Of a stretch of 64,000 nt of DNA, positions 2,474 through 40,405 are shown piece after piece. The stretch is taken from positions 8,750-72,749 of the forward strand of contig CALVNW010000004.1 in assembly GCA_944350015.1 (NCBI GenBank), written 5' to 3'. This DNA comes from an uncultured Clostridia bacterium. GTDB lineage: Bacteria; Bacillota; Clostridia; Christensenellales; UBA1242. The notes beneath the pieces are model-generated. The model had not been told where the DNA came from. It worked only from the letters and a program-made list of their open reading frames with translations, and did not search any database. Each line of letters opens with the position of its first letter. The first letter of the stretch is position 1. Both the position numbers and the translations under genes were made by a program.

Positions 2474-3739
2474 TTAAATTATAAAACTTGCGACTAAATC
2501 TTTCAAGCATTCGACAACATCTTTAAGTCTTTCGTCATCGTCAATGAGCCTTTGGTTGAAGCAAATTTGCAATTTAAAACAGTCATTTTTAATTTGATTA
2601 ATCGTTCTTGCTTTTTTGTATGAGTCAAAAATTGAGTTGATAGAAAAGTATTGCAAGTTGTGGTTATTTAAGATGTTGATTATCTGATATAACTTTTCTT
2701 TGTCATAGTCATTTGGTAAAAACAGCGTCACGTCTTGCACTCTGTCTTTACTTAGAACGTGCAGTTCAAGAAAGAGTTTTGTTTTAGGCTTGAGAACTTT
2801 TTTTACTAGAGTTGTCTTGTAAGCATTCTTTTTGATGTTAAAATAATCTTGGTCATTATCCCTGCTCTTATAGATGATAGAAAAGCCAAATTCCTTATAA
2901 AAGAGTTTGCATAGGCTACCTGTTATGCTTTCACTTGGCTTAAGTTTGCCGTTTAAGATGCTATCCTTAGCGTGCGGAGCAGATATTACTATGTCACTTA
3001 TACCGTCAACATACTCAAAATCATTCAAACTTTGAGCTTTCGAAAATGCGTCATCAATCTCGCGTAGTCTTTCAAGGCTAATCTGCCTTGACTTAATTTC
3101 ATTACGTTTGCGAATTGTCTTGCAAAAAGAATGCAAGGCATTTACAATTTTAACAAGATTTTGAGGAGAATACTCCAAAAAATTATTATTTATCTCAATT
3201 TGCACGGCTTTTTGCATAGGTTTGCTTGAAATAAAGTTTGACACCGTCTTCTGCTCTAGGCTGTAACCCTGGTCAATAGCAATCCTATAGATGCCAAATT
3301 TTTTGAAGGTGCTAGTAAGCTCGCCAAGCATACCATTGTCATCTTGCAAGGTCTTACCGAAGTTTGAGCAAATATTGACAACAAAATCACCCTTACTTAT
3401 GGTGTGAAGGTCAAGCACAACAATCGGCGAGTATTTTCGGCATACGCTGGCAAGTTGATTTTTGTAATCAGACTTCTCATCACTGTTTGCATCGTCTCCA
3501 CAGTTTTTGGTTTTGCAAAGTATGCTGTATCCAAAATACTTATTTAAAAGCTTTGCGATGACCCCGCTATTATACTCTGCAGGATAAATTTTTCCATCTT
3601 TTGTAAAAGATGATGAGTGTGGCGCACTGATAATAATGTCGCTTCTATTGCCTAGGATAAACTCATAAGAGGATTCGCCTTCATTTTTGAAACCCTCTTG
3701 CAACATTTCAATTTGATTTTTTGTAAGATTCTTTAACAT
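2474..3739 (-). CDS. protein with two tandem N-formylglutamate amidohydrolase (FGase)-like domains
   Basis: 421 aa made of two halves of about 200 aa. Each half carries (I/V)ISAPH..., D(A/N)N/D.D and (D/E)LH(T/V) motifs. The first half also has an QIEINN Glu, which is ICFNQ in the second half. Confidence 0.35.
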   Translation of the reverse strand: MLKNLTKNQIEMLQEGFKNEGESSYEFILGNRSDIIISAPHSSSFTKDGKIYPAEYNSGVIAKLLNKYFGYSILCKTKNCGDDANSDEKSDYKNQLASVCRKYSPIVVLDLHTISKGDFVVNICSNFGKTLQDDNGMLGELTSTFKKFGIYRIAIDQGYSLEQKTVSNFISSKPMQKAVQIEINNNFLEYSPQNLVKIVNALHSFCKTIRKRNEIKSRQISLERLREIDDAFSKAQSLNDFEYVDGISDIVISAPHAKDSILNGKLKPSESITGSLCKLFYKEFGFSIIYKSRDNDQDYFNIKKNAYKTTLVKKVLKPKTKLFLELHVLSKDRVQDVTLFLPNDYDKEKLYQIINILNNHNLQYFSINSIFDSYKKARTINQIKNDCFKLQICFNQRLIDDDERLKDVVECLKDLVASFII

Positions 3740-6050: not shown

Positions 6051-9000
6051 ATGGAGAGAAAATTGTTGACAAAAAGAGATATATATTTTGTGGTGGTATT
6101 TATATTATCACTACTTTTTGTCTCGACTTTCTTTTATGGTGGTCAAAAGGTTGAAGATGAGGTTAGTTATGGTGCCACCACACCGACAAGTTCAACCTCT
6201 TGGACTGCAAGCTCAAGCTATTATGATACATCTTGGTCGGGAAGTGGAACGGCTAGCTCGCCCTATCTAATCACCACTCCTGCCGAGCTTGCGGGACTTG
6301 CCTATCGCGTAGACGCTGGCACCAGCTATAGCGGTAAATACTTCCTCCAGACAGCAGATTTGAATTTGCGAGCGCATTACTGGGACCCTATCGGGGATTA
6401 TGAATCTTTTTCAGGGTATTACGATGGAGGTGGACATACAATAACAAACCTTATAATAGATCATTCGTCTTCATCAACCACAATTACAGAGCTAGGACTT
6501 TTTTCAGATACTAGTGGCGCCACGATTAAAAACATAACCATAGCTAGTTCGTATATAGCCACTTATGTCTCTAGTGATCTTGGGTTTATAGTAGGTTGTG
6601 CCAACTACTCTATTATAGAAAACTGTCATACCGCTTCTTCCAACTTAATATATGTAAGCAAAGATGATTATGTGATTAATGCAGGAGGAATTGCTGGAAT
6701 GGTCCAACTCAGTACTATAATTAGAGGGTGTAGTAATGCCACCGATATAAAAGTGGCTAAGAATAGTCCTTCTGGAGGTTCTGTTGCTGGTGGAATATGT
6801 GGATTTGCTCTTGACAGTGAGATTATAGACTGTTATAATGAAGGAGAAATAACCTCTAGTGACTGTGACGACCTTGATTTACTTCAGAGTATCGGAGGAA
6901 TATGTGGGTATGTTTATAAAATTACATTTAATGGATGTTATAATAAGGGTTTCATTAATGGTGACAGATGTGCTGGTGGGATTGTAGGGCAGATTGATAT
7001 TGGCTCATGCATTATAACCAATTGTTATAATATCGGAGAAGTAAATGGTTATTATGCTGGCGGAATTGTTGCGTTAGTAAGGGATGGTGAGGATAGTATA
7101 ACAAACTGTTACAATACTGGCGCGATAGGTGGTAGCAGTATTGGCGCTTATGGTGTTTCTGGAATTTGCGGGTATAGTTTTGACTCTCTTAATATTATAA
7201 ATTGTTATAATGTGGGCAGTGTGCCGACTAGTAGCTGTGGGGGTATAATAACTTATAGTGGTGATGGTGACTATTTAAGCAATAATTACTATGGAGGTAA
7301 TTGCAACGCAGAATTTGGAATGGGCCCTAGTTACAATCCGTCAAACACAGGCTGTACTAAAATCACCAACTTAAATACAACTTCCTATGCAAAGAGTAGA
7401 AGTTGGTACACTAACTCCTCAAACTGGAATCGCTCATACCCTTGGGATTTTGACACGATATGGAGTATCAGCTCTTCTATCAATAATGGTTATCCATATT
7501 TAAATCCTAGGTATGCTATCAAATATAGTGTTCCAAGCCAACTATCATTATCCTCTTCAGCACCGACAAGTGCAGAGGCGGGTGAGACAGTATATATTCC
7601 ATCTCCAACTTCTAGAGGTGATGGATATTCTTTTGAGGGTTGGACTGCATCCAATTTGAATACTGACACAGCTAAGTATGGCAATAGTTCAAGTAGTGTG
7701 TCAACTCACTGGGCTAATGGCAGTACGAAAGTAAATGCAAATTATTTTGTTGACCTTGCAAATATCGGACAAACGGTAACGCTTACGGCTAATGTGAAGA
7801 TATCTAGTTACACCGTTAATGTCATCTATGGCAACGGAACATCAAACCGAAAACTTACGCTTGACTATGGGGAGTCCTTCAACCTTCCAGTGCCGAAGTG
7901 GAATGGCAAAGAGTTTCAAGGCTGGACAATATCGGGGACATATAATCTTGACACCGCACGTCAAGGGGGTTCGTCGAACCCGACCCTAGCGTGGTCAAAC
8001 ACAACGTCACTACCGACAAGTACATATTTTAGTAACCTTGCAATAGTAGACGGTGCTACCGTAACCCTCACTGCTCAGTGGGCGCCAGGACGATATGATA
8101 TAACTTATGACGTCAATAGTTCAGACGCGCAGTATGTTGGATTAAACTATGCACTTTCAGGTGAAGATTTTACAATAACAGCGGATGGTGGATGCCAGAT
8201 AAGTTTTGATTCAACATATGGAATTATTACAATAGATGGCAAGAACGATGATTGCACATATGGAGAAAGGTTAATTAGAACTGATATTGACTACCAGCCA
8301 AATAGTATGGAAGCTGGTCACTACAAGATTGGCGGTAGTCTCCAAAGAAAAGAGGGGGTACTTCCAGCTTATAGACCTCATATTGATATTTACCTTGATA
8401 GCTATTTGTTGGGTGAGGGAAGCACTGAGTACACGTATTATCATAAGTATACAGAAACAAATGATATGGGGAGTAGTAGAAAATACGTAGAACTTACTAT
8501 ATTCCCTTGTTCTTACACTTATGACAACACACAGTATAGAGTGTTTGCCTATGACCCTAACTATAGCGGAGACAACACCCAGCAGATATTATATGGTGAT
8601 ACTCCAGCTATGGGGTACGCTATAAGACCAGGTTATGTATTAAGCGGTTGGAACACAAGGGCAGACGGCAAGGGTACCACCTACGGACCAGACAACATCG
8701 GTACAATCACCTCAGATATAACCCTCTACGCGCAGTGGGAACTTGCAACCTACACAGTCACCTTTGATGGCAATGGTGGAACAAGTGAGCTTGACCGAAT
8801 GGACGTAGAGTACCTTTCCACCTTTGGTAGTGGCAATGGCGGAGAGCTACCACTTGCCGAAAAAGAAGGTTATGTATTTAAAGGCTGGTACTTAAGTGCC
8901 GACTCTGACGAAGAGGTAACTGCCTCAACGATTTATACCTATACAGACAACATAACTCTCTACGCACAATGGGAAGAGACTTGGTATGACTATGGTGTCA

Positions 9001-9746
9001 AGCCTGAAGGCGAGGGAACAGAAAGCTCACCATATCTAATAGCTTTGCCAGAGCATTTAGCTTGGCTAACAAATCAAGTAGCAAAAGGCAATGAGACCGA
9101 AGCATATTGCAGACAAATAGCCAACATTGATATGAGTAATACAAAGAACGTAGCAGAAGATAAAACCCTTGAGTGGTTCCCGATAGGCACAGACAGCCAT
9201 CCATTTAAAGGAAACTATAACGGCAACGGCTATAGCCTAAGAATAACCTCAAGCGGAACGCAATCAAACTACTATGGACTGTTTGGAGTGACCGAAAACG
9301 CCACGATAGAGAAGATATACTTTATTGGCAACAACTTTACAAGCGGAAGGACCTCGGGCGGAGTTATAGCCTACGCAAAGGGCAGTACTATAGTGAAAGA
9401 TAGCTACATAGAGCTTTCACTTCAACGAAAGATAGACACCTCTAGCTTTACTTTTGGAGCTATCATAGGTAATGGTGAAAGTGGAAGCGTAATAGAAAAC
9501 TGCTCACTTGTATACTACAATTCTCTTTCAACTGAGTATCCTCTTGCAAACGGAGACACCGAGATAAGAAACGTAGTGTATAGATACACCGAAGATAACA
9601 CTAATTTTGAAAACCGTTACAGCGGTACCGATTTTAGCGGATTTAGCTATACATCATATTGGACAATGCCACTACCAAAGAACCTCACGCATCTTCCAAC
9701 CGAAGAGGTAACGCTTGACGTTATCAAAACTTGGGCGGGGGAGTAA
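6051..9746 (+). CDS. large TM-anchored surface protein with GLUG-motif repeats and InlB-B/Flg_new-type repeats
   Basis: 1231 aa with an N-terminal hydrophobic anchor. GLUG-like repeats recur (AGGIAGMV, AGGICGF, IGGICGY, AGGIVGQ, AGGIVAL, SGICGY). Flg_new-like repeats are present (GYSFEGWT, GKEFQGWT, GYVLSGWNTRADGKGTTY..LYAQW, GYVFKGWY..LYAQW). A second GLUG-like region lies at the C-terminus. No LPXTG motif. Confidence 0.7.
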   Translation: MERKLLTKRDIYFVVVFILSLLFVSTFFYGGQKVEDEVSYGATTPTSSTSWTASSSYYDTSWSGSGTASSPYLITTPAELAGLAYRVDAGTSYSGKYFLQTADLNLRAHYWDPIGDYESFSGYYDGGGHTITNLIIDHSSSSTTITELGLFSDTSGATIKNITIASSYIATYVSSDLGFIVGCANYSIIENCHTASSNLIYVSKDDYVINAGGIAGMVQLSTIIRGCSNATDIKVAKNSPSGGSVAGGICGFALDSEIIDCYNEGEITSSDCDDLDLLQSIGGICGYVYKITFNGCYNKGFINGDRCAGGIVGQIDIGSCIITNCYNIGEVNGYYAGGIVALVRDGEDSITNCYNTGAIGGSSIGAYGVSGICGYSFDSLNIINCYNVGSVPTSSCGGIITYSGDGDYLSNNYYGGNCNAEFGMGPSYNPSNTGCTKITNLNTTSYAKSRSWYTNSSNWNRSYPWDFDTIWSISSSINNGYPYLNPRYAIKYSVPSQLSLSSSAPTSAEAGETVYIPSPTSRGDGYSFEGWTASNLNTDTAKYGNSSSSVSTHWANGSTKVNANYFVDLANIGQTVTLTANVKISSYTVNVIYGNGTSNRKLTLDYGESFNLPVPKWNGKEFQGWTISGTYNLDTARQGGSSNPTLAWSNTTSLPTSTYFSNLAIVDGATVTLTAQWAPGRYDITYDVNSSDAQYVGLNYALSGEDFTITADGGCQISFDSTYGIITIDGKNDDCTYGERLIRTDIDYQPNSMEAGHYKIGGSLQRKEGVLPAYRPHIDIYLDSYLLGEGSTEYTYYHKYTETNDMGSSRKYVELTIFPCSYTYDNTQYRVFAYDPNYSGDNTQQILYGDTPAMGYAIRPGYVLSGWNTRADGKGTTYGPDNIGTITSDITLYAQWELATYTVTFDGNGGTSELDRMDVEYLSTFGSGNGGELPLAEKEGYVFKGWYLSADSDEEVTASTIYTYTDNITLYAQWEETWYDYGVKPEGEGTESSPYLIALPEHLAWLTNQVAKGNETEAYCRQIANIDMSNTKNVAEDKTLEWFPIGTDSHPFKGNYNGNGYSLRITSSGTQSNYYGLFGVTENATIEKIYFIGNNFTSGRTSGGVIAYAKGSTIVKDSYIELSLQRKIDTSSFTFGAIIGNGESGSVIENCSLVYYNSLSTEYPLANGDTEIRNVVYRYTEDNTNFENRYSGTDFSGFSYTSYWTMPLPKNLTHLPTEEVTLDVIKTWAGE

Positions 9747-9892: not shown

Positions 9893-10795
9893 TTAAGCTT
9901 TTTTTAAGCGTATATCATCACCTTTAATGTATACACAAATTGAGGTGGCTTTATCTATAATTCTACTCGCAATACGCTCATCATAATAGTCTTTGATGTT
10001 GTAAAGGTCAAGGTTCGAGGTTATAATTGTTGGAAGTCTTTTCATTTTTCGCTCATTGATAACCTGATAGAGATAGTTGAGGGTGATATTTGGAAGTCGA
10101 AGTTCTGTGCCAAGGTCATCAATAAACAAAAATTCGCAGTTAAGATAGCGGTCAAGCAGTTGATTTTTTTGTTCCAAATCTCTTGTTGAGTAGCTTTTCA
10201 CAAAATCTTGATGCATAGCAAAGGAAGTTGTGAGGTAGACGATGTGGTTAAGTTTAATAAGCTCATTTGCCATACACTTTACAAGATGAGTCTTGCCAAC
10301 ACCTGTGTCACCAGCGATGAAAATAAGGTTTTTATGAAAGTCGGAGTGGCACCAGCTTTTCATTTTGGCATAGAGTTTTTTCATTGAATCATCTTCACCG
10401 AAAACTTCAAATTTGACGTTATCAAAGTCCTCAAAACTCAAAAAACCGCTCTCTTTTTTGAGAATATTATTAATTTCCCTTATAAGACACTGACAATATT
10501 TGCCATCAACAAAGCCCGTGTCATTGCACTTTTTGCAGGAGTAATCTGGGTCAATAGAAGGCAGTTTCAACTCTTTCAGCCGTGCGTAATACTTTTGTTT
10601 GAGAGCTTTGACCTCATCGCTCATTTCTTTTCCAAGTTTTGCACACTCTATCATATTTTCGGTATATTTTTGATAAAGCTCCTTAAAAATAGGGTCCTCA
10701 AAAGCCTGCGCCTTGTTTTTGATGGCATAACTATCGGCATAAAACCTTCGCTTGTCAATGACTTCTTTTGCTTTTTCAATGATTGTTGATTTCAT
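9893..10795 (-). CDS. dnaI: DnaI/DnaC-type replicative helicase loader ATPase
   Basis: Walker A AGDTGVGKTHL, Walker B FLFIDDLG, TIITSNL, and an N-terminal Cys cluster CKKCNDTGF..CQC. Confidence 0.75.
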   Translation of the reverse strand: MKSTIIEKAKEVIDKRRFYADSYAIKNKAQAFEDPIFKELYQKYTENMIECAKLGKEMSDEVKALKQKYYARLKELKLPSIDPDYSCKKCNDTGFVDGKYCQCLIREINNILKKESGFLSFEDFDNVKFEVFGEDDSMKKLYAKMKSWCHSDFHKNLIFIAGDTGVGKTHLVKCMANELIKLNHIVYLTTSFAMHQDFVKSYSTRDLEQKNQLLDRYLNCEFLFIDDLGTELRLPNITLNYLYQVINERKMKRLPTIITSNLDLYNIKDYYDERIASRIIDKATSICVYIKGDDIRLKKA

Positions 10796-10984
10796 TTTTA
10801 CTCCTATTAAAATTGATTATAAATTATCTTAAAAGATAGAAAGTTCACATAAATTATAGAAAATTCACAAAAATTACAATAAAATTCAATAAAATATGCA
10901 AAAATTTAATAAATTTGTGTAAATTATTTGAAAATATAAAGAAAATTTAAAAAATATATATAAATTCATAAAATCTTAATAAAA

Positions 10985-12427
10985 TTAAACGTCTATCTCT
11001 TCAATGGATTGGAATAGTGCATTGATTTCATCTTTTGAGTATTTTCTTTCATTGAAACTTCCACCGCTTGCCTGTTCTTCTTTTATTGGCAAGTTGTTTT
11101 TCGCCTCATCTATTGTCTTTATGCCTTTATCTCTATAATCGGCAAGCACGCGTGAAAGATATTTTATAGGATTATTTTTGCCTTTTGCAAGAGTGATTGC
11201 GTAGTCAAGCAGTTCGTCGCTAATTTTCCATTCTTGTGTCCAGATTTTGTAATTACTTCGGTCATAGGTGCTGACTGCGCGGTCTATATTAAGGCTCATT
11301 AAGATTGCTTTTATCCTCTTGTCATCAGATAATATTTGTCCCATATATTGGTTAAAAGCGGGCAGGGTGAGAAGTCCAAGTTTATAGAACTTCTGCACGG
11401 TTTTATCCATACCCTCAAGCGTTCTTATAGAGTTTTTAAAGCAATATGAAGCAATTTCAACAAGAAGTTCTTTCTCAAAGCCCATATTTATCCATTTCAA
11501 AATGTAAGAGTCAACAACAACCTCAAGATTTTCATAGTATACACCAATCGTGCGGTTTATCTCTTTTGCAAGGTCGTAGTATGACTGTTTTTGTTTTTCA
11601 TAATCTTCAATCTCACTTGCTGAGAGAAGTTTCATCTCATAATATTTGGAGATAATGCCGTCAAGCCTTTCAAAGGAAAAATAAGACCTCTTTTTGTATT
11701 TTTTACATAGATACAAGATAACCTCAAGGCTAAAACCATAGTCTTGTAGCCATTTGTTGATAAGCGCTCGCTCTTCAACATAAGGCGCTCTCTTTATGCC
11801 CGCGCTTGCAAAAATCTCTTTTATCTGAGAATTATTTTCTTCAAAGGATTTAAGCCTCTCTTCAACTTGAAGTGTAGTTGTTATGCCTTCGCCAGCCCAG
11901 TTTTTTGCGACAGTCAAGATATAGTTATATCCAACCGCACTCTTCTTGGTATCCACGCAGTACTGCATAATCATAAGTAGCGCTTCTTGCTCAAAGTGGT
12001 AGCGCTCCAAAAAGTCATAATACTGTTCATACTCGTGCTTAGTTATGGTGCGTTTGCCCTTGAAAACCTCTTGCGCTTGTTGATTGAAAACCTCATATTT
12101 CTCAGGTTTATACAATTTGTTCGCCGACAGTACATTTTTAAGCGGTATGAAAGTCACTTGAATAGGCTCTACATTTAAAATTCTTACAAGCCCTTGCTCT
12201 TGCCAGTACTCAAAAGCCTTAAGCACCTCATCTTCACTTTGATTTACGGTCTTTGCAAAACTTTCAAGACTGTTGTCAAAAGAGGTGCTACTGCAAATAT
12301 ACAGCCCGTACAAATAGACCACCACATACTGAGGTGGCGCAAAAGGAAGGTAATCATTTATAAAGATATTATCAACTTCAGTCTTAGAACTTGCTATATA
12401 TTCAGTTGAGTATTTACAAAAAGCCAT
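10985..12427 (-). CDS. DnaD/DnaB_2-domain replication initiation and membrane attachment protein
   Basis: Repeated DnaD-like C-terminal domains (e.g. YLSRVLADYRDKGIKTIDEAK). It lies upstream of the dnaI-like gene, as in the Bacillus dnaB-dnaI operon. The start is placed at MAFCKY because of RBS GGAGaaaactATG. The ORF track extends to 12472. Confidence 0.65.
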   Translation of the reverse strand: MAFCKYSTEYIASSKTEVDNIFINDYLPFAPPQYVVVYLYGLYICSSTSFDNSLESFAKTVNQSEDEVLKAFEYWQEQGLVRILNVEPIQVTFIPLKNVLSANKLYKPEKYEVFNQQAQEVFKGKRTITKHEYEQYYDFLERYHFEQEALLMIMQYCVDTKKSAVGYNYILTVAKNWAGEGITTTLQVEERLKSFEENNSQIKEIFASAGIKRAPYVEERALINKWLQDYGFSLEVILYLCKKYKKRSYFSFERLDGIISKYYEMKLLSASEIEDYEKQKQSYYDLAKEINRTIGVYYENLEVVVDSYILKWINMGFEKELLVEIASYCFKNSIRTLEGMDKTVQKFYKLGLLTLPAFNQYMGQILSDDKRIKAILMSLNIDRAVSTYDRSNYKIWTQEWKISDELLDYAITLAKGKNNPIKYLSRVLADYRDKGIKTIDEAKNNLPIKEEQASGGSFNERKYSKDEINALFQSIEEIDV

Positions 12428-12515
12428 AGTTTTCTCCGCTATTATTGTAACACAACTTTTCTTAGAATGCAAAACATTTTCAAAGTGATTTTTTTATAAT
12501 GCCCAGTTAAAAAAA

Positions 12516-14075
12516 GTGGTTATTAAATTAAAAGGCTGTAAATACAATATAAGTATGAAAAAATTAAAGTTAAAAAAGATATCAATCAATAAAAAAACAA
12601 AGATTATTGCGCTGAGCCTTCTTTTTGCGCTGGTCATAGCAATCGTAGTGATGCTATGCCTCTCTGCCACCAAAGATGAGGACAAAGCGCGCACTAGTTA
12701 CAAGATGACGCTTGCCTATGACGCGCAAACTCACGTTTTATCGGGCAGTGAAGAGGTCACCTATATAAATAATAATGAGAATATGTTCACATATTTATAT
12801 TTGCATCTCTATCCAAACGCCTTTAGAGAGGGCGCCAAAAACAGTCTAGCGTCGGTTTCAACCCAAGATGAGCTTTATGTCAACGGCGTAAGCTATGGTA
12901 ACATCACAGTTTCCTCGGTGGAGTGCGAAGGCGAGGCGCTTGAGTTTAACGTTGAAGGAGAGGACGAGAATATCTTGCGCGTCGATTTGCCTTGCGAGCT
13001 TTATCCCGACGAGCAAATAACCTTTTCTATAGACTTTTCTGTCACCCTTGCAAATATCAATCATAGGCTTGGCTACGGCAATAACACCATAAATTTTGGC
13101 AATTTTTATCCTATTTTATGTGTCTATGAGGATGGAGTAGGCTTTAAAACCGACCTTTATCACTCAAATGGCGACCCTTTCTATAGCGAAGTGGCAAACT
13201 ATGAGGTCTCTTTAACCTATCCAAGCGAATATACGCTTGCAAGTTCTGGCAACGTTTTGTCGTCGCAGGAAGGTGAGGACATAGTTACTGCCAATATCTT
13301 AGGCGAAAATATCAGAGATTTTTGCTTTGTGCTCAGCGATATATTTGAGGAGGTCTGTGCAAACGTTGACGGCACTCAAATAAATTACTATGGCTATCGT
13401 GGCGACAACAATTTGCAGACCAACTTATCGACAGCCCAAGAGGCGCTCTCAACCTTCAATGATCTCTTCGGCAGGTATCCATATGAGGTTTTAAACGTTG
13501 TCAAAACCAACTTCGTTCACGGCGGAATGGAGTATCCAAACCTTGTCTATATAAGTGATAGCCTCTCTCAAGAAGATATTGCCTACGTCATTGTTCACGA
13601 GATTGCTCATCAATGGTGGTATGGCGTTGTCGGCAACGATGAAAATAGTCACGCTTGGCTTGATGAAGGGCTTGCCGAGTATAGCACACTACTATTTTTT
13701 GAGAATAACACAAAGTATGGCGTAGATTGTGAGGCGATGATAGATAGCGCCCTTACAAGTTATAAAACCTTTGTGCGAGTGTACGGTTCAGTAAATGGCG
13801 AGGTTGACACTTCAATGGATAGACCACTTAGCGACTTTGCTACCGAACCCGAGTATGTGCAGAACACCTATACAAAAGGACTTCTTATGTTTGACAGCCT
13901 TCGCAAATCGACAGGTGACCGAAAGTTTTTCAAGGCATTGAAGAACTATTACAAAGATTTTTGCTATAAAAATGTTACGCCCGCCGAGTTTATAGCATCC
14001 TTTATTGATAGCACGGGCTATAACCTTGAAAACTTTATCAACAGCTGGCTAAACGGCGAAGTTGTATTTCAGTAA
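12516..14075 (+). CDS. M1-family zinc metallopeptidase, membrane-anchored
   Basis: HEIAHQWWYG...WLDEGLAEY (HExxH-18-E). An N-terminal TM segment is present. The alternative ATG at 12555 (MKKLKLKK) may be the true start. Confidence 0.8.
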   Translation: MVIKLKGCKYNISMKKLKLKKISINKKTKIIALSLLFALVIAIVVMLCLSATKDEDKARTSYKMTLAYDAQTHVLSGSEEVTYINNNENMFTYLYLHLYPNAFREGAKNSLASVSTQDELYVNGVSYGNITVSSVECEGEALEFNVEGEDENILRVDLPCELYPDEQITFSIDFSVTLANINHRLGYGNNTINFGNFYPILCVYEDGVGFKTDLYHSNGDPFYSEVANYEVSLTYPSEYTLASSGNVLSSQEGEDIVTANILGENIRDFCFVLSDIFEEVCANVDGTQINYYGYRGDNNLQTNLSTAQEALSTFNDLFGRYPYEVLNVVKTNFVHGGMEYPNLVYISDSLSQEDIAYVIVHEIAHQWWYGVVGNDENSHAWLDEGLAEYSTLLFFENNTKYGVDCEAMIDSALTSYKTFVRVYGSVNGEVDTSMDRPLSDFATEPEYVQNTYTKGLLMFDSLRKSTGDRKFFKALKNYYKDFCYKNVTPAEFIASFIDSTGYNLENFINSWLNGEVVFQ

Positions 14076-14147
14076 ACACAACTTATTTAGTGCATTTAAG
14101 TATGATTTTATATGAAAGCTAGTTAGCAGACTAATATGTTAAACAAG

Positions 14148-14260
14148 TTATCCCCATTTTAGCTGGGAAGTTATCCACAATTTGATAAAACATCGAAAGT
14201 TATCCACATTTTAGTTAGGAAGTTATCCACAATTTATTAAAACATCAAAAGTTATCCACA
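14148..14260 (+). promoter_or_regulatory. array of five same-orientation DnaA boxes
   Basis: TTATCCCCA at 14148. Perfect TTATCCACA at 14171, 14200, 14223 and 14252. Spacing is 23/29/23/29 nt, i.e. a 52 nt unit duplicated. Confidence 0.75.
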
Positions 14261-14280
14261 TTTTTGGCATTATTTAAATA

Positions 14281-14520
14281 AAAACCCGTACAAAACCTAG
14301 GAAAACCTAACAAAACCTAACCATAACCTAAAGAAACCTAACAAAACCTAACCATAACCTAAAGAAACCTAACAAAACCTAACCATAACCCAACAAAACC
14401 CAACGAAACCCAACCATAACCGAACAAAACCCAACAAAACCTAACTGTAACTGATACTGATACTGTAACCAATACTGTAACTGATACTATTACTGCTAAT
14501 GGTACTGTAAATGATAGACA
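14281..14520. repeat. iteron-like tandem repeats (10-11 nt AAACCTAAC-type units in a 32 nt super-repeat, then ACTGTA/ACTGAT hexamer repeats)
   Basis: AACCTAACAAAACCTAACCATAACCTAAAGA occurs about 3 times and degenerates to AACCCAAC units. It is followed by ACTGTAACTGATACTGATACTGTAACCAATACTGTAACTGATACT. No ORF is present. Confidence 0.8.
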
Positions 14521-14666
14521 AACAGACAGTTAGCTAGTCAATCAATAAAAAATAATCTATCTTTCTTGAGCGCACGCGCGTGAGGAAGAGATTTTGAAAA
14601 TCAATAATTTTAAACTATATGGCGAGCAAAATTCTACTAGCAAGGCGATTAAAGTTAAGTCAAAAT

Positions 14667-14699
14667 AAGACGGCTAAATTTTAAATATCCGTCTTTTTT
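14667..14699. terminator. bidirectional terminator-like hairpin
   Basis: AAGACGG-15 nt loop-CCGTCTT followed by T6, with an A-rich stretch upstream. It lies 62 nt beyond the stop of the minus-strand gene at 14761. Confidence 0.5.
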
Positions 14700-14760
14700 G
14701 ATTGTTGCAATTTTTAGTTCTGAAAAAGTAATCCGAAAAAGTATAGGTGTTTAGACAATG

Positions 14761-15579
14761 TTAACACTCCTTCACAAACTCATAGTACAGCGAAAGGACA
14801 GAAGTGTAACGGTATTTTAAAAGCGAGGAGTAGGTCTGCGACTGATTTTCTAGCGTTCCTCCGCACAGCTTTTGGCTTTCATCAAGTGCCTTTTCGAGAA
14901 CTTGCGAAAGTTCTTTAATCGTGCCGACTGGCTCAGGGAAGAGGGTGCTTAGGTTGTCGATGACGCCATTTAGGGTGTTGTGTGCGCTGTTCACGGCAAG
15001 ACGTGCCGAGATTTCATTGTATACATTTGTGTCAAGGGCAATGGCGCAATCATAGATGTTAAGGTAGTACTCATAAAGCGAGCCAAGAGCCTTTGTCAAA
15101 ACCTTTTTTTCGTCAGAGGTGAAGTTTCCGCTAAGCGTAACACTTTTAAAGCTTACCGCGATTATCTCGCTGTCAAGTCCTTGATTTGCTTTGACGCTGT
15201 TCTGCACAAGAGTGGCGTCATTTTTGTTTTGATAGACCGACGAGATGACGTAGTAGTAATCATTTTGTTTCCAAATAAAACCGCCCGCGCCAAGCTTTTG
15301 AAAGTCGCCTGCTCTTGACTTTGCCTCGCTCTCAACCTGGCTTTTGGCAAGCGAGAGCATATACACTTCATAGGAACTAGAGCGAACACTCTCTGCCGAG
15401 CTGTCAGTTTTGACAATGAGAAGGGATAGGAAGCTTGCAATTATCGTGCAAATGACTAAAAACATCAAAAAAGCTGTAATAATCATCGTTTTTTTTGAAT
15501 TTTTTGGGCTAAATTTAAAAATAGTTGGCATAAGACGTTGCGTTTTACTCCTCTTATATGATATTGTAGTGTATGACAA
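14761..15579 (-). CDS. membrane-anchored protein with a SPOR-like domain
   Basis: One TM segment (MIITAFLMFLVICTIIASFLSLLIV). It is followed by YEVYMLSLAKSQVESEAKSRAGDFQKLGAGGFIWKQNDYYYVISSVYQNKNDATLVQNSVK, which resembles a SPOR fold pattern. Confidence 0.35.
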   Translation of the reverse strand: MSYTTISYKRSKTQRLMPTIFKFSPKNSKKTMIITAFLMFLVICTIIASFLSLLIVKTDSSAESVRSSSYEVYMLSLAKSQVESEAKSRAGDFQKLGAGGFIWKQNDYYYVISSVYQNKNDATLVQNSVKANQGLDSEIIAVSFKSVTLSGNFTSDEKKVLTKALGSLYEYYLNIYDCAIALDTNVYNEISARLAVNSAHNTLNGVIDNLSTLFPEPVGTIKELSQVLEKALDESQKLCGGTLENQSQTYSSLLKYRYTSVLSLYYEFVKEC

Positions 15580-15617
15580 AAAACAACAAACTATGAAAGA
15601 ATTATTGATAAAAAAGT

Positions 15618-15646
15618 TTGGATAGTTTCGTCAAAAGTAGTATAAT
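15618..15646 (+). promoter_or_regulatory. groESL promoter candidate
   Basis: TTGGAT, a 17 nt spacer, then TATAAT. Confidence 0.45.
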
Positions 15647-15658
15647 TTATATGTAAAT

Positions 15659-15689
15659 TTTAGGTGACAAAAAGGGATTGTCGCCTTAA
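15659..15689 (+). promoter_or_regulatory. inverted repeat at the CIRCE position with non-CIRCE sequence
   Basis: TTTAGGTGACAA-aaaggga-TTGTCGCCTTAA (10 of 12 complementary), between the -10 box and the groES RBS. Canonical CIRCE is TTAGCACTC-N9-GAGTGCTAA. Confidence 0.5.
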
Positions 15690-15721
15690 AAAACGTATAA
15701 ATATTTTGCAGGAGGAAAAAT

Positions 15722-17634
<1,913 letters not shown>

Positions 17635-19521: not shown

Positions 19522-19628
19522 TAATTTCAAACTTTTAAATAAGTTATTATAATGTTTTTATAGACTTGAGAAAATTATGATTTTTTGATTTAATATATCA
19601 TAAACAAATTAAATTATAATAATTTATC

Positions 19629-19715
19629 AAAAAATAAACTAAATTAATTTGATTTTTAAAAAATAAACTAAATTAATTTGATTTTTAAAAAATAAACTAA
19701 ATTATTTTAATTTAT
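19629..19715. repeat. tandem 29 nt AT-rich repeat (about 2.6 copies) within a larger repeat-rich spacer (19560-19920)
   Basis: AAAAAATAAACTAAATTAATTTGATTTTT x2 plus a partial copy. The core TAAACTAAATTA recurs at about 19793 and as TAGACTAAATTA at about 19774. AAATTATTATTAATTTATCAAAAAA recurs twice. Confidence 0.75.
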
Positions 19716-19922
19716 AGCAAAATTATTATTAATTTATCAAAAAAATAATTAAATTGCTAAATTTTATCGAAAAATAGACTAAATTATTATAAAATAAACT
19801 AAATTAATTTATTTTATAACCAAATTATTATTAATTTATCAAAAAATAATAAAATTACAATAATTTTACTAAAAATTATTGTAAAAAATATCTAAATTAT
19901 CTCAATAATTAAAGAAAGCACC

Positions 19923-30492: not shown

Positions 30493-31017
30493 ATGAAAAA
30501 ACCAGTTTATATTAGATGTCCTAGATGTGAACTTAACTATATTCAAAAAAAGGATAAGTTCTGCCCAGTATGCAAGGCTGAAATGGAAGCTAAGAGGGAC
30601 TATGTTGACGATATTGATTTAGAGCTTTGCCCAATTTGCAAAACTAACTATATCCAGCCAGACGAGATTATGTGTGCAAGCTGTTTGAAAGAGCATCAAA
30701 ACGAGGATGGCGAGCTTAGCTCAGATTGGGAAGACTATATCATCAGAGATGACCAAGACGATATTATGACCCTTGATGACGAAACCGGTGATATGGCGTC
30801 TGTCAATGACATCACAAAATCTACACTTCTTGACGATGATGATATCTCTCCAGATATTGACTTTGACGATGACGATGGCGATATCTCGTTTGACGATGAA
30901 GAGTTTGATGATGACGACGATGATGACGATGACGATGACGACGATGATATCGACGATATAGACGATGATGACATCGATGATGACGATTATGACTACGACG
31001 ATGACGATGATGACTAA
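30493..31017 (+). CDS. double zinc-ribbon protein with an extremely acidic poly-Asp tail
   Basis: CPRC-x15-CPVC and CPIC-x15-CASC, followed by about 100 aa rich in D/E. The last roughly 60 aa are almost entirely Asp. Confidence 0.6.
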   Translation: MKKPVYIRCPRCELNYIQKKDKFCPVCKAEMEAKRDYVDDIDLELCPICKTNYIQPDEIMCASCLKEHQNEDGELSSDWEDYIIRDDQDDIMTLDDETGDMASVNDITKSTLLDDDDISPDIDFDDDDGDISFDDEEFDDDDDDDDDDDDDDIDDIDDDDIDDDDYDYDDDDDD

Positions 31018-39944: not shown

Positions 39945-40175
39945 ATGGATTATAAAATAACCGAAAGAATTAAAAACATACTTGCAAGTGATAAGATGGC
40001 AGACCCGCAACACATATGTGAGGTTTTAAAAGATGAGCTAAAACCGCTTATTGAAAGCTATATAGAGCTTGACAGCGACATTCGCGTACGCTTTAAAAAG
40101 GAGCGCGATAAAAACATTTTTTGGATAGAGTTTTCAGCCGACCGCATTAAGCCTTTTGGCTATATTCCCTATTAA
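39945..40175 (+). CDS. minE: MinE-like topological specificity factor (short, divergent)
   Basis: ERIKNILASDKMADPQHICEVLKDELKPLIESYIELDSDIRVRFKKE aligns by eye to the MinE pattern (ERLQ.IL..DR...p..l..lk.ei..vi.kYv.id...v.v). It is separated from minD by a 235 nt AT-rich spacer. Confidence 0.5.
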   Translation: MDYKITERIKNILASDKMADPQHICEVLKDELKPLIESYIELDSDIRVRFKKERDKNIFWIEFSADRIKPFGYIPY

Positions 40176-40405
40176 TTTTATTTTATCCATAATTTATTAA
40201 ATATTTTTTATCAAATAAATTATTAAACGGTAATTTATATAGTAATTTTGTTTTATTAAATAATTTTTTATATAATTTTATCTATATATTTTTATTTACA
40301 ATAATTTTTATTTTCAAACAATAAAAATATTTTTTATAATTTAAAAAATTTTTAATATTAATATTATTGATATTATTAATATTATTATTTTTTATTTTTA
40401 GCTAC

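Follow-up and report, generated by a model that had tools for sequence, protein, structure and literature searches.

A strain-variable array of five co-oriented DnaA boxes beside the apparent remains of a phage gene in an uncultured Clostridia bacterium

What does a row of five DnaA boxes do in a gene-free interval between two convergent chromosomal genes? The question is raised by a 64-kb stretch of contig CALVNW010000004.1 from an uncultured Clostridia bacterium (hereafter the window, numbered from its first nucleotide), in which a preliminary description had noticed such a row and proposed that it titrates DnaA, serves as an unusual or secondary chromosomal replication origin (oriC), or is left over from a plasmid- or phage-type origin. 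Our analysis leads us to think that the array is probably an accessory DnaA-box cluster without origin function, joined to a phage-type origin that is itself dead, and that it probably binds DnaA and acts as a mild sink for this protein at most. The interval itself (14076–14760) was described as a 685-nt stretch devoid of open reading frames (ORFs) between convergent genes, and this is borne out even when ORFs as short as 40 aa are counted.

The array occupies positions 14145–14264 of the + strand, as delimited by sequence reading, pattern search and Tandem Repeats Finder. Perfect copies of TTATCCACA, a high-affinity DnaA box, start at 14171, 14200, 14223 and 14252, and a pattern search allowing one mismatch adds TTATCCCCA at 14148 as the first, imperfect box of the series, exactly the five positions listed previously. 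Box starts are 23, 29, 23 and 29 nt apart, and Tandem Repeats Finder resolves the whole as a 52-nt unit present 2.3 times with 91% matches, in agreement with the same-strand alternation and duplication already remarked upon. Copy by copy, the array reads as five instances of AAGTTATCC(A/C)CA(A/T)TTT on the + strand. Its 12-nt core AAGTTATCCACA, longer than the 9-mer box, is identical in four copies and perfectly common to the two half-units of the repeat, whereas their spacers (11 and 17 nt) can barely be aligned. No other perfect boxes exist in the window: all four lie inside the array, when dinucleotide shuffles contain a mean of 0.53 per window and reach at least four in 1 of 100 cases. With one mismatch allowed, 26 sites are found, scattered singly, and the array is the sole cluster. 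The strength of this statistical excess is nevertheless reduced because the five boxes arose by tandem duplication of one unit and not as five independent chance events. Five boxes within 113 nt amount to a cluster by the measure used for Firmicute oriC regions as well as for the DnaA-box clusters (DBCs) of Bacillus subtilis.

The gene on the left of the array encodes an M1-family metallopeptidase (M1), whose 90%-identity protein cluster contains 42 sequences and gave access to 15 conspecific contigs, the window included, carrying five M1 variants; this protein-cluster route was the only one to yield conspecific contigs, and metagenome and genome scans with the M1 peptidase returned no relative above 67% identity. 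Seven of the 15 contigs (allele A: the window, L281 and L290–L294) possess the array, with five boxes and the same spacing every time. In L290–L292 all five boxes are perfect, so that TTATCCCCA in the window is a lineage-specific point change. The remaining eight contigs (allele B: L282–L287, L295 and L296) have instead an unrelated, G+C-rich sequence of ~204 nt with zero DnaA boxes (alignment A1). The segment specific to allele A extends from the M1 stop codon to a common landmark, ATAAAAAC (14076–14285, + strand, alignment A1), to the right of which the sequences are homologous in all strains and differ in the copy number of iteron-like repeats described below; overall, the intergenic length varies between 654 and 883 nt. 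The contigs represent at least five lineages, 3–5% apart in their flanking genes. Similarity of these genes fails to sort the contigs by allele, which implies that the dimorphism is old or has been moved by recombination. This presence/absence polymorphism shows that the array is dispensable. Beyond the species, the linkage of dnaI, dnaB and the M1 peptidase gene is kept in most of 80 related (Christensenellales-like) genome loci, and in none of these is the orthologous M1 gene followed by a DnaA-box array.

Could the array be oriC, or else an additional chromosomal origin that fires in each cell cycle? Five consensus boxes in one orientation, in non-coding DNA near helicase-loader genes, invite this interpretation, which was among those put forward at the outset, but oriC is excluded and an additional origin is not supported: the array is missing from 8 of the 15 conspecific contigs and from all 80 related genomes, and half of the strains could not lack their chromosomal origin. 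The remaining hallmarks of an origin are lacking as well. Cumulative GC skew, which the preliminary description recommended plotting for the whole replicon, rises monotonically from 0.13 to 3.91 across the 64 kb, without a turning point at 14 kb or a change of sign at the array, and most genes on both sides of it lie on the + strand, without a gene-strand switch. Neither DnaA nor DnaN was found among the ORFs of at least 300 aa in the window, and to this extent the earlier statement that both genes are absent holds. No run of three or more in-register DnaA-trios occurs in any frame beside the last box, nor does any markedly AT-rich unwinding element adjoin the boxes, the 30-nt windows that flank them having 63–77% A+T, below typical intergenic DNA of this genome.

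The DNA that follows the boxes reveals a different past. The iteron-like repeats noticed there before are indeed present: ~15 copies of a 10/11-nt unit (AAAACCTAAC or CATAACCTAA; 14290–14445, + strand, supported by Tandem Repeats Finder, blastn and blastx) form a 31-nt super-unit repeated 4.9 times, with stop codons in all frames, and in the spacing of their direct repeats, roughly a helical turn, they match iteron-type origins. They give way to a block of ACTGTA/ACTGAT hexamers (14442–14515, + strand) that would read TDTDTVTNTVTD and then to a further pseudogene remnant (14516–14667, + strand) that reads ...SQSIKNNLSFLSAHAREEEILKINNFKLY..., colinear with '...SINKNKLS..VRACE...F..YW' of proteins with the DUF6291 domain and truncated ahead of their C-terminal domain. 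In blastn searches, the internal repeat (GATAACCCAAA or GATAACCCAA) of the DUF6291 gene found at the same place in the related genome L002 matches the repeat array of the window with 70% identity (E 6e-10), and in blastx searches the region 14277–14620 aligns across stop codons with the DUF6291 linker (E 5e-9 to 1e-11), as in the match with P0140 ('...NLKKPKKDLTKPKKNL...ITDTDTVTDTVTDTETD...SQSINENKILSKVRACGEEAEI...', E 5e-9), which also covers the hexamers. The latter correspond to the block encoding NVNDNVNVN or TDTDTVTD after the iterons of intact DUF6291 genes, although they have only ~65% A+T, when the intact phage genes instead have an AT-rich TAAATG block at this point. Judging from these alignments, the iterons and hexamers of the window are the pseudogenised linker-coding middle of a prophage DUF6291 gene. 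By tblastn, neither the N- nor the C-terminal DUF6291 domain was found anywhere in the window, which leaves the iterons without a cognate initiator gene beside them. In allele B the last part of the N-terminal domain is still weakly recognisable as a colinear trace, suggesting that allele B is the more original pseudogene and allele A the replacement. The iteron pattern AACCTAA, taken as three repeats and compared with IMG/VR, gave 92 unspecific matches, including arrays with a 5-nt period and giant-virus contigs, and was discarded as uninformative.

The interval between the M1 and membrane-protein genes is a variable slot, a prophage graveyard that holds prophage leftovers in sister species too. 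Downstream synteny (the membrane-protein gene and groESL) is kept only in the closest species, with M1 proteins 64–70% identical. There the slot is occupied by a + strand DUF6291-domain gene in L001 and L002 (419 and 306 aa, respectively), by a 71-aa gene and three Xre-type helix-turn-helix genes in L297 and L298, by a short AT-rich spacer in L301, and by 846 nt of non-coding DNA in L299, with ~33 repeats of the AAAACCTAAC type followed by ACTGAT/ACTGTA hexamers and with neither ORFs nor DnaA boxes.

What did the destroyed gene do? Full-length homologues of the L002 protein are encoded in the early regions of Clostridia prophages (30–41% identity over 92–96% of the query). In L395 and L396 the gene order is integrase, CI-like and Cro-like repressors, Gp157, ERF, SSB, NinB, a small gene and DUF6291; in L398 it is RecT, a DEAD helicase, one gene, DUF6291 and HNH; and in Riemerella phage PJA1 a DUF6291 homologue with a Phg_2220_C domain comes after Erf and a YqaJ exonuclease. 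Intact DUF6291 genes contain four to eight intragenic repeats of ~10 nt and then an AT-rich hexamer block encoding NVNDNVNVN. Repeat-bearing genes are found in L395 (5001–5774), L398 (5001–5846), L394 (5004–5708) and L002 (11809–12729), and the repeat is AAAACCTAGA in L398, AACCTAGACT in L395 and TAGCAAAAA in PJA1. With its period of ~10.5 nt it is read in two frames, GAA AAC CTA GAA AAA CCT AGA yielding ENLE and KPR and, in a second case, GAT AAC CCA AAG ATA ACC CAA yielding DNPK and ITQ, so the repeat unit is a feature of the DNA and not of the peptide. In the AlphaFold model of one of these proteins, P0142, two confidently predicted domains, one N-terminal with three helices and one C-terminal and all-alpha, are joined by a disordered linker (residues 77–137), which is the stretch that the repeats encode. 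In phage lambda the origin lies inside gene O, and the 'replisome organizer' genes of Firmicute phages likewise carry iterons and an AT-rich block in their linker-coding part. The position within the phage module, the iterons, the AT-rich block and the disordered linker together point to an embedded origin of this lambda O-like kind, and suggest that the phage DUF6291 proteins are an uncharacterised family of initiators, each with its origin inside its own linker-coding region. Apart from DUF6291 itself, the neighbours of the DUF6291 model in a library of predicted viral structures searched with Foldseek bear the names replisome organizer, DnaD domain protein or replication initiator, with high Foldseek probabilities and low TM-scores. 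We found no mention of DUF6291 in the literature searched. If this assignment is true, it indicates at which site replication of these phages should begin and to which DNA motif the protein should bind (for P0142, the AAACCTAGA repeats). DnaA boxes are not found near the intact prophage DUF6291 genes, and the idea that they are a regular part of the DUF6291 module was rejected, since only 1 of 126 viral loci with box arrays has a DUF6291 match, a weak one 3.7 kb away. The proposal that the locus is a remnant of a phage- or plasmid-type origin is hence supported for the iterons, homologous to the DUF6291 repeat block. The boxes lie outside the module in the intact copies examined, and may have come with a phage origin or have arisen locally.

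Tandem co-oriented DnaA boxes are, all the same, widespread in phages. At least 120 IMG/VR contigs (L081–L200) have three or more co-oriented perfect boxes at short distances, one of them as many as 22, and the spacings peak at 11/12, 21/22 and 33 nt, that is, at whole helical turns. Among small gut Microviridae, Gokushovirus WZ-2015a (KT264787; L288, 2990–3090) has seven tandem co-oriented AAGTTATCCACA boxes and bajarodmic virus 609 (PQ006815; L289, 3003–3115) a 21/22-nt unit repeated six times with AAGTTATCCACA boxes, in both cases in a non-coding region. In Lactococcus phage 949, a 1-kb non-coding gap between ORF40 and ORF41 (L404, 3050–4110), where early transcription units diverge, contains co-oriented boxes at 3481, 3503, 3524 and 3544, then an AT-rich stretch and then about ten long direct repeats; by its layout it looks like a DnaA-dependent phage origin. 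The literature searched contains nothing that links DnaA boxes with Microviridae and no description of tandem co-oriented DnaA-box arrays in phage genomes. As for a donor of the array in the window, its exact junction and spacer patterns have no match in IMG/VR, and blastn of the region against plasmids gave no match either. Phage sequences matched by blastn were rejected as donors because they have only the boxes in common with it, as were five viral contigs with the exact 23/29 spacing, whose sequences are unrelated. The array may have formed by local duplication or by import.

These observations can be assembled into the following scenario. The slot would have received a phage DUF6291 gene of which only the linker-coding middle survives, with the iterons (the 10.5-nt AAACCTAAC repeat) and the hexamer block, the iterons being now out of frame and presumably expanded to ~15 copies. 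In roughly one sampled strain out of two, the tandemly duplicated five-box unit would then have taken the place of the ~200 nt that precede the iterons, while in the others this stretch would be a pseudogene remnant of greater colinearity. From what is established about DnaA boxes, consensus copies arranged head-to-tail should bind DnaA with high affinity, and host DnaA would thus probably occupy the five boxes as it does at non-origin clusters. Lacking an unwinding element, a run of DnaA-trios and a phage initiator, the site would not fire, and its effect would be, at most, that of a small and dispensable DnaA sink. As a whole we consider this scenario probable; as regards the boxes themselves, the role of a DnaA-box cluster that perhaps titrates DnaA is the most likely one, which we propose with moderate confidence.

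Several points count against it. The 23/29-nt spacing differs from the helical-turn spacing (11/12, 21/22 and 33 nt) that dominates the phage arrays, and searches of viral contigs, phages and plasmids brought up no donor. The allele-A segment is 99–100% identical between three lineages whose third codon positions differ by 6–12%, but control intergenic regions of this species are equally conserved; as the controls behave identically, we dropped an argument for purifying selection on the array, which is not demonstrated. The effect of a five-box cluster carried by only some of the strains may be too small to measure. Of the six clusters of B. subtilis, no more than two affected initiation, depending on their distance to oriC; one was detectable upon single deletion, the other when deleted in combination (Okumura et al. 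2012, PMC3245932). Finally, profile and fold searches against the PDB gave nothing significant in support of an initiator function for DUF6291. As a separate observation, the intergenic regions 10796–10984, 12428–12554 and 15532–15721, compared among the window and L281–L295, are 99–100% identical in most lineage pairs and 87–92% in a few, between genes that differ by 6–12% at third codon positions; this mosaic is suggestive of frequent recombination.

Some of these points would be expected if the array were a neutral relic, a duplicated unit that happened to contain a box or a copy of a mobile element, with no selected function and with DnaA binding devoid of consequence. This is a serious rival, although we judge it clearly less probable than an accessory cluster. 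It accommodates the unexceptional conservation, the origin by tandem duplication (52-nt unit, 91% identity), the position in a pseudogene graveyard of variable content, and the absence from about half of the conspecific contigs and from all related species. It explains less well why four or five copies have one and the same 12-nt core AAGTTATCCACA when the spacers have diverged beyond alignment, why the number of boxes is fixed at five in three lineages while the adjacent iterons vary, and why both alleles persist across lineages 3–5% apart in their flanking genes.

The juxtaposition of boxes and orphan iterons raises another possibility, namely a cryptic origin, or one activated in trans, for instance by an initiator supplied by a DUF6291 phage, or else a decoy that titrates this initiator. 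The succession of boxes, a short AT-rich stretch and iterons is the layout of iteron-type origins and of the phage 949 region. The boxes, moreover, point at the iterons, just as box R1 of the Escherichia coli oriC is oriented toward the unwinding element, and non-coding copies of the iteron unit are retained in a sister species with just 69% identity in the M1 protein. Against this stand the absence from the window of any initiator gene detectable by tblastn with DUF6291 proteins, the absence of a strongly AT-rich unwinding element by the boxes (the hexamer block has only ~65% A+T), and the rarity of the association itself, intact phage DUF6291 genes having no DnaA boxes nearby and viral array loci offering the single weak DUF6291 match mentioned above. 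A cryptic origin or decoy therefore appears unlikely. Slightly more doubtful still is the specific proposal that the allele-A hybrid is kept as a working element, either as a decoy for the initiator of incoming DUF6291 phages or as an origin fired in trans by the phage. If it were true, a trans-fired origin would amplify the neighbouring chromosome during phage infection or induction, and the A/B dimorphism would be a balanced polymorphism under phage pressure. The decoy idea has a counterpart in plasmid-borne 'Per' phage resistance, based on origin titration and engineered in lactococci.

A role in transcription was also envisaged, in which DnaA bound to the array stops or alters read-through from the M1 gene into the relic or controls a small transcript ending at a hairpin located at 14668–14700. 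This hairpin, AAGACGG-N15-CCGTCTT with T-runs on both strands, was read directly from the sequence and probably serves both convergent transcription units as a bidirectional terminator; our terminator scan omits it because its loop is longer than the 8 nt allowed by the scanner. The scan found no intrinsic terminator between the M1 stop codon and the array, the hairpin being the next terminator-like structure, and at some of the B. subtilis clusters DnaA serves as a transcription factor (PMC3245932). In distant relatives, a perfect or near-perfect DnaA-box pair lies just 3' of the M1 gene (L054, 1634–1770; L063, 11414–11445; L070, 11476–11496), in a position equivalent to that of the array; in L054 and L070 it is upstream of an N-acetylmuramoyl-L-alanine amidase (Amidase_3) gene, whose promoter may, to judge from this arrangement, be regulated by DnaA. 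In the window itself, by contrast, no gene in the ORF list and no known RNA family lies downstream of the array (an Rfam scan of 13500–16100 gave only a sub-threshold match, outside the region), no convincing + strand promoter follows it, and the neighbouring genes converge on the region. All this makes a transcriptional function improbable, to about the same degree as a cryptic origin.

The array is surrounded by chromosomal housekeeping genes. The bacterium, a spore-forming member of the Clostridia with low G+C, has as its nearest public genomes metagenome-assembled genomes of uncultured Clostridia and Christensenellales. The M1-family metallopeptidase gene on the left (12516–14075, + strand) encodes 506 aa as called in public assemblies, and the gene on the right (14761–15579, − strand) a membrane-anchored protein of 272 aa (256 aa as called in public assemblies), beyond which come groES and groEL (15722–17634). 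On the other side, the host helicase-loading operon comprises genes for a DnaD-domain protein of the B. subtilis DnaB type (10985–12472, − strand) and for a DnaI/IstB-like AAA+ loader (9893–10795, − strand); both are chromosomal and conserved in position across relatives, and their coordinates confirm the previously given distance of 1.7–4 kb from the array. Farther on, the window encodes tadA, RNase J, mreB, minD, dinB, Tex, mcsB-clpC and a germination protease. Between a Lactamase_B gene and dnaI lies a gene for a 1231-aa surface protein with Listeria-Bacteroides repeats and GLUG motifs (6051–9746); as Lactamase_B and dnaI are only 17 nt apart in the conspecific contigs L282 and L285, it is a strain-specific insertion. 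Repeats are not restricted to the array. An ORF at 30493–31017 has a long acidic tail derived from GATGATGAC-type repeats with periods of 9, 12 and 21 nt, and degenerate tandem repeats make up the intergenic regions 2015–2466, 10836–10986, 19591–19896 and 40170–40400, all of them long and extremely AT-rich. In the AT-rich intergenic regions of this genome, tandem-repeat periods are about 10, 21, 29–31 and 52 nt. The region studied here, with 68% A+T, is low in comparison with many of its intergenic regions.

Taken alone, the array is one more non-origin DnaA-box cluster, an element of a known kind, in little-studied gut Clostridia. Its value resides in the fact that strains otherwise alike differ by nature in the presence or absence of a clean five-box cluster, which would allow existing metagenomes to be used to probe shifts in initiation (from ori/ter coverage) in bacteria that are not yet manipulable. 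A second benefit is that tracing the iterons gave a functional lead on the uncharacterised DUF6291 phage proteins.

How does the locus compare with known systems? As in the window, the arrays of phages (the 949 group, gut Microviridae and IMG/VR contigs) consist of an extended box, (A/G)AGTTATCCACA, in tandem, in one orientation and in non-coding DNA, and the phage 949 gap shares with allele A the succession of co-oriented boxes and repeats. They differ from the window in their spacing, mostly 11/12, 21/22 or 33 nt instead of 23/29 nt, and none of them has its spacers. The DUF6291 genes resemble the lambda O type in having helical-turn repeats, then an AT-rich block, in the linker-coding part of a two-domain phage protein; in the window, unlike in that type, the initiator gene is destroyed, and what survives is the linker region alone, interrupted by stops in all frames. 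Allele A also resembles iteron plasmid origins such as P1 oriR, F oriS, pSC101 and RK2 oriV, in which DnaA boxes flank the iterons, whereas the intact DUF6291 genes have no adjoining DnaA boxes and encode presumptive initiators.

Among chromosomal elements, E. coli datA and DARS1/2 are non-origin box clusters like the array of the window, and they modulate DnaA availability. While datA needs an IHF site and acts via ATP hydrolysis, DARS elements consist of three boxes in a defined mixed orientation; the window has neither architecture, its boxes being all direct repeats 23/29 nt apart on one strand. In number, it equals datA, which has five high-affinity DnaA boxes (PMC3245932). The non-origin DBCs of B. 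subtilis, for example those at yydA-yycS and ywcI-vpr, bind DnaA stably and restrain initiation (PMC3245932). The array differs from them in that its boxes are all co-oriented and come from a recent tandem duplication, in that some members of the species lack the cluster, and in that it lies inside a prophage relic and not in a conserved promoter region. It shares with them the several consensus boxes, the intergenic location on a Firmicute chromosome, and a position outside oriC without an unwinding element. By analogy with these clusters, the behaviour to be expected of the array would be stable binding of DnaA without firing, with a negative influence on initiation.

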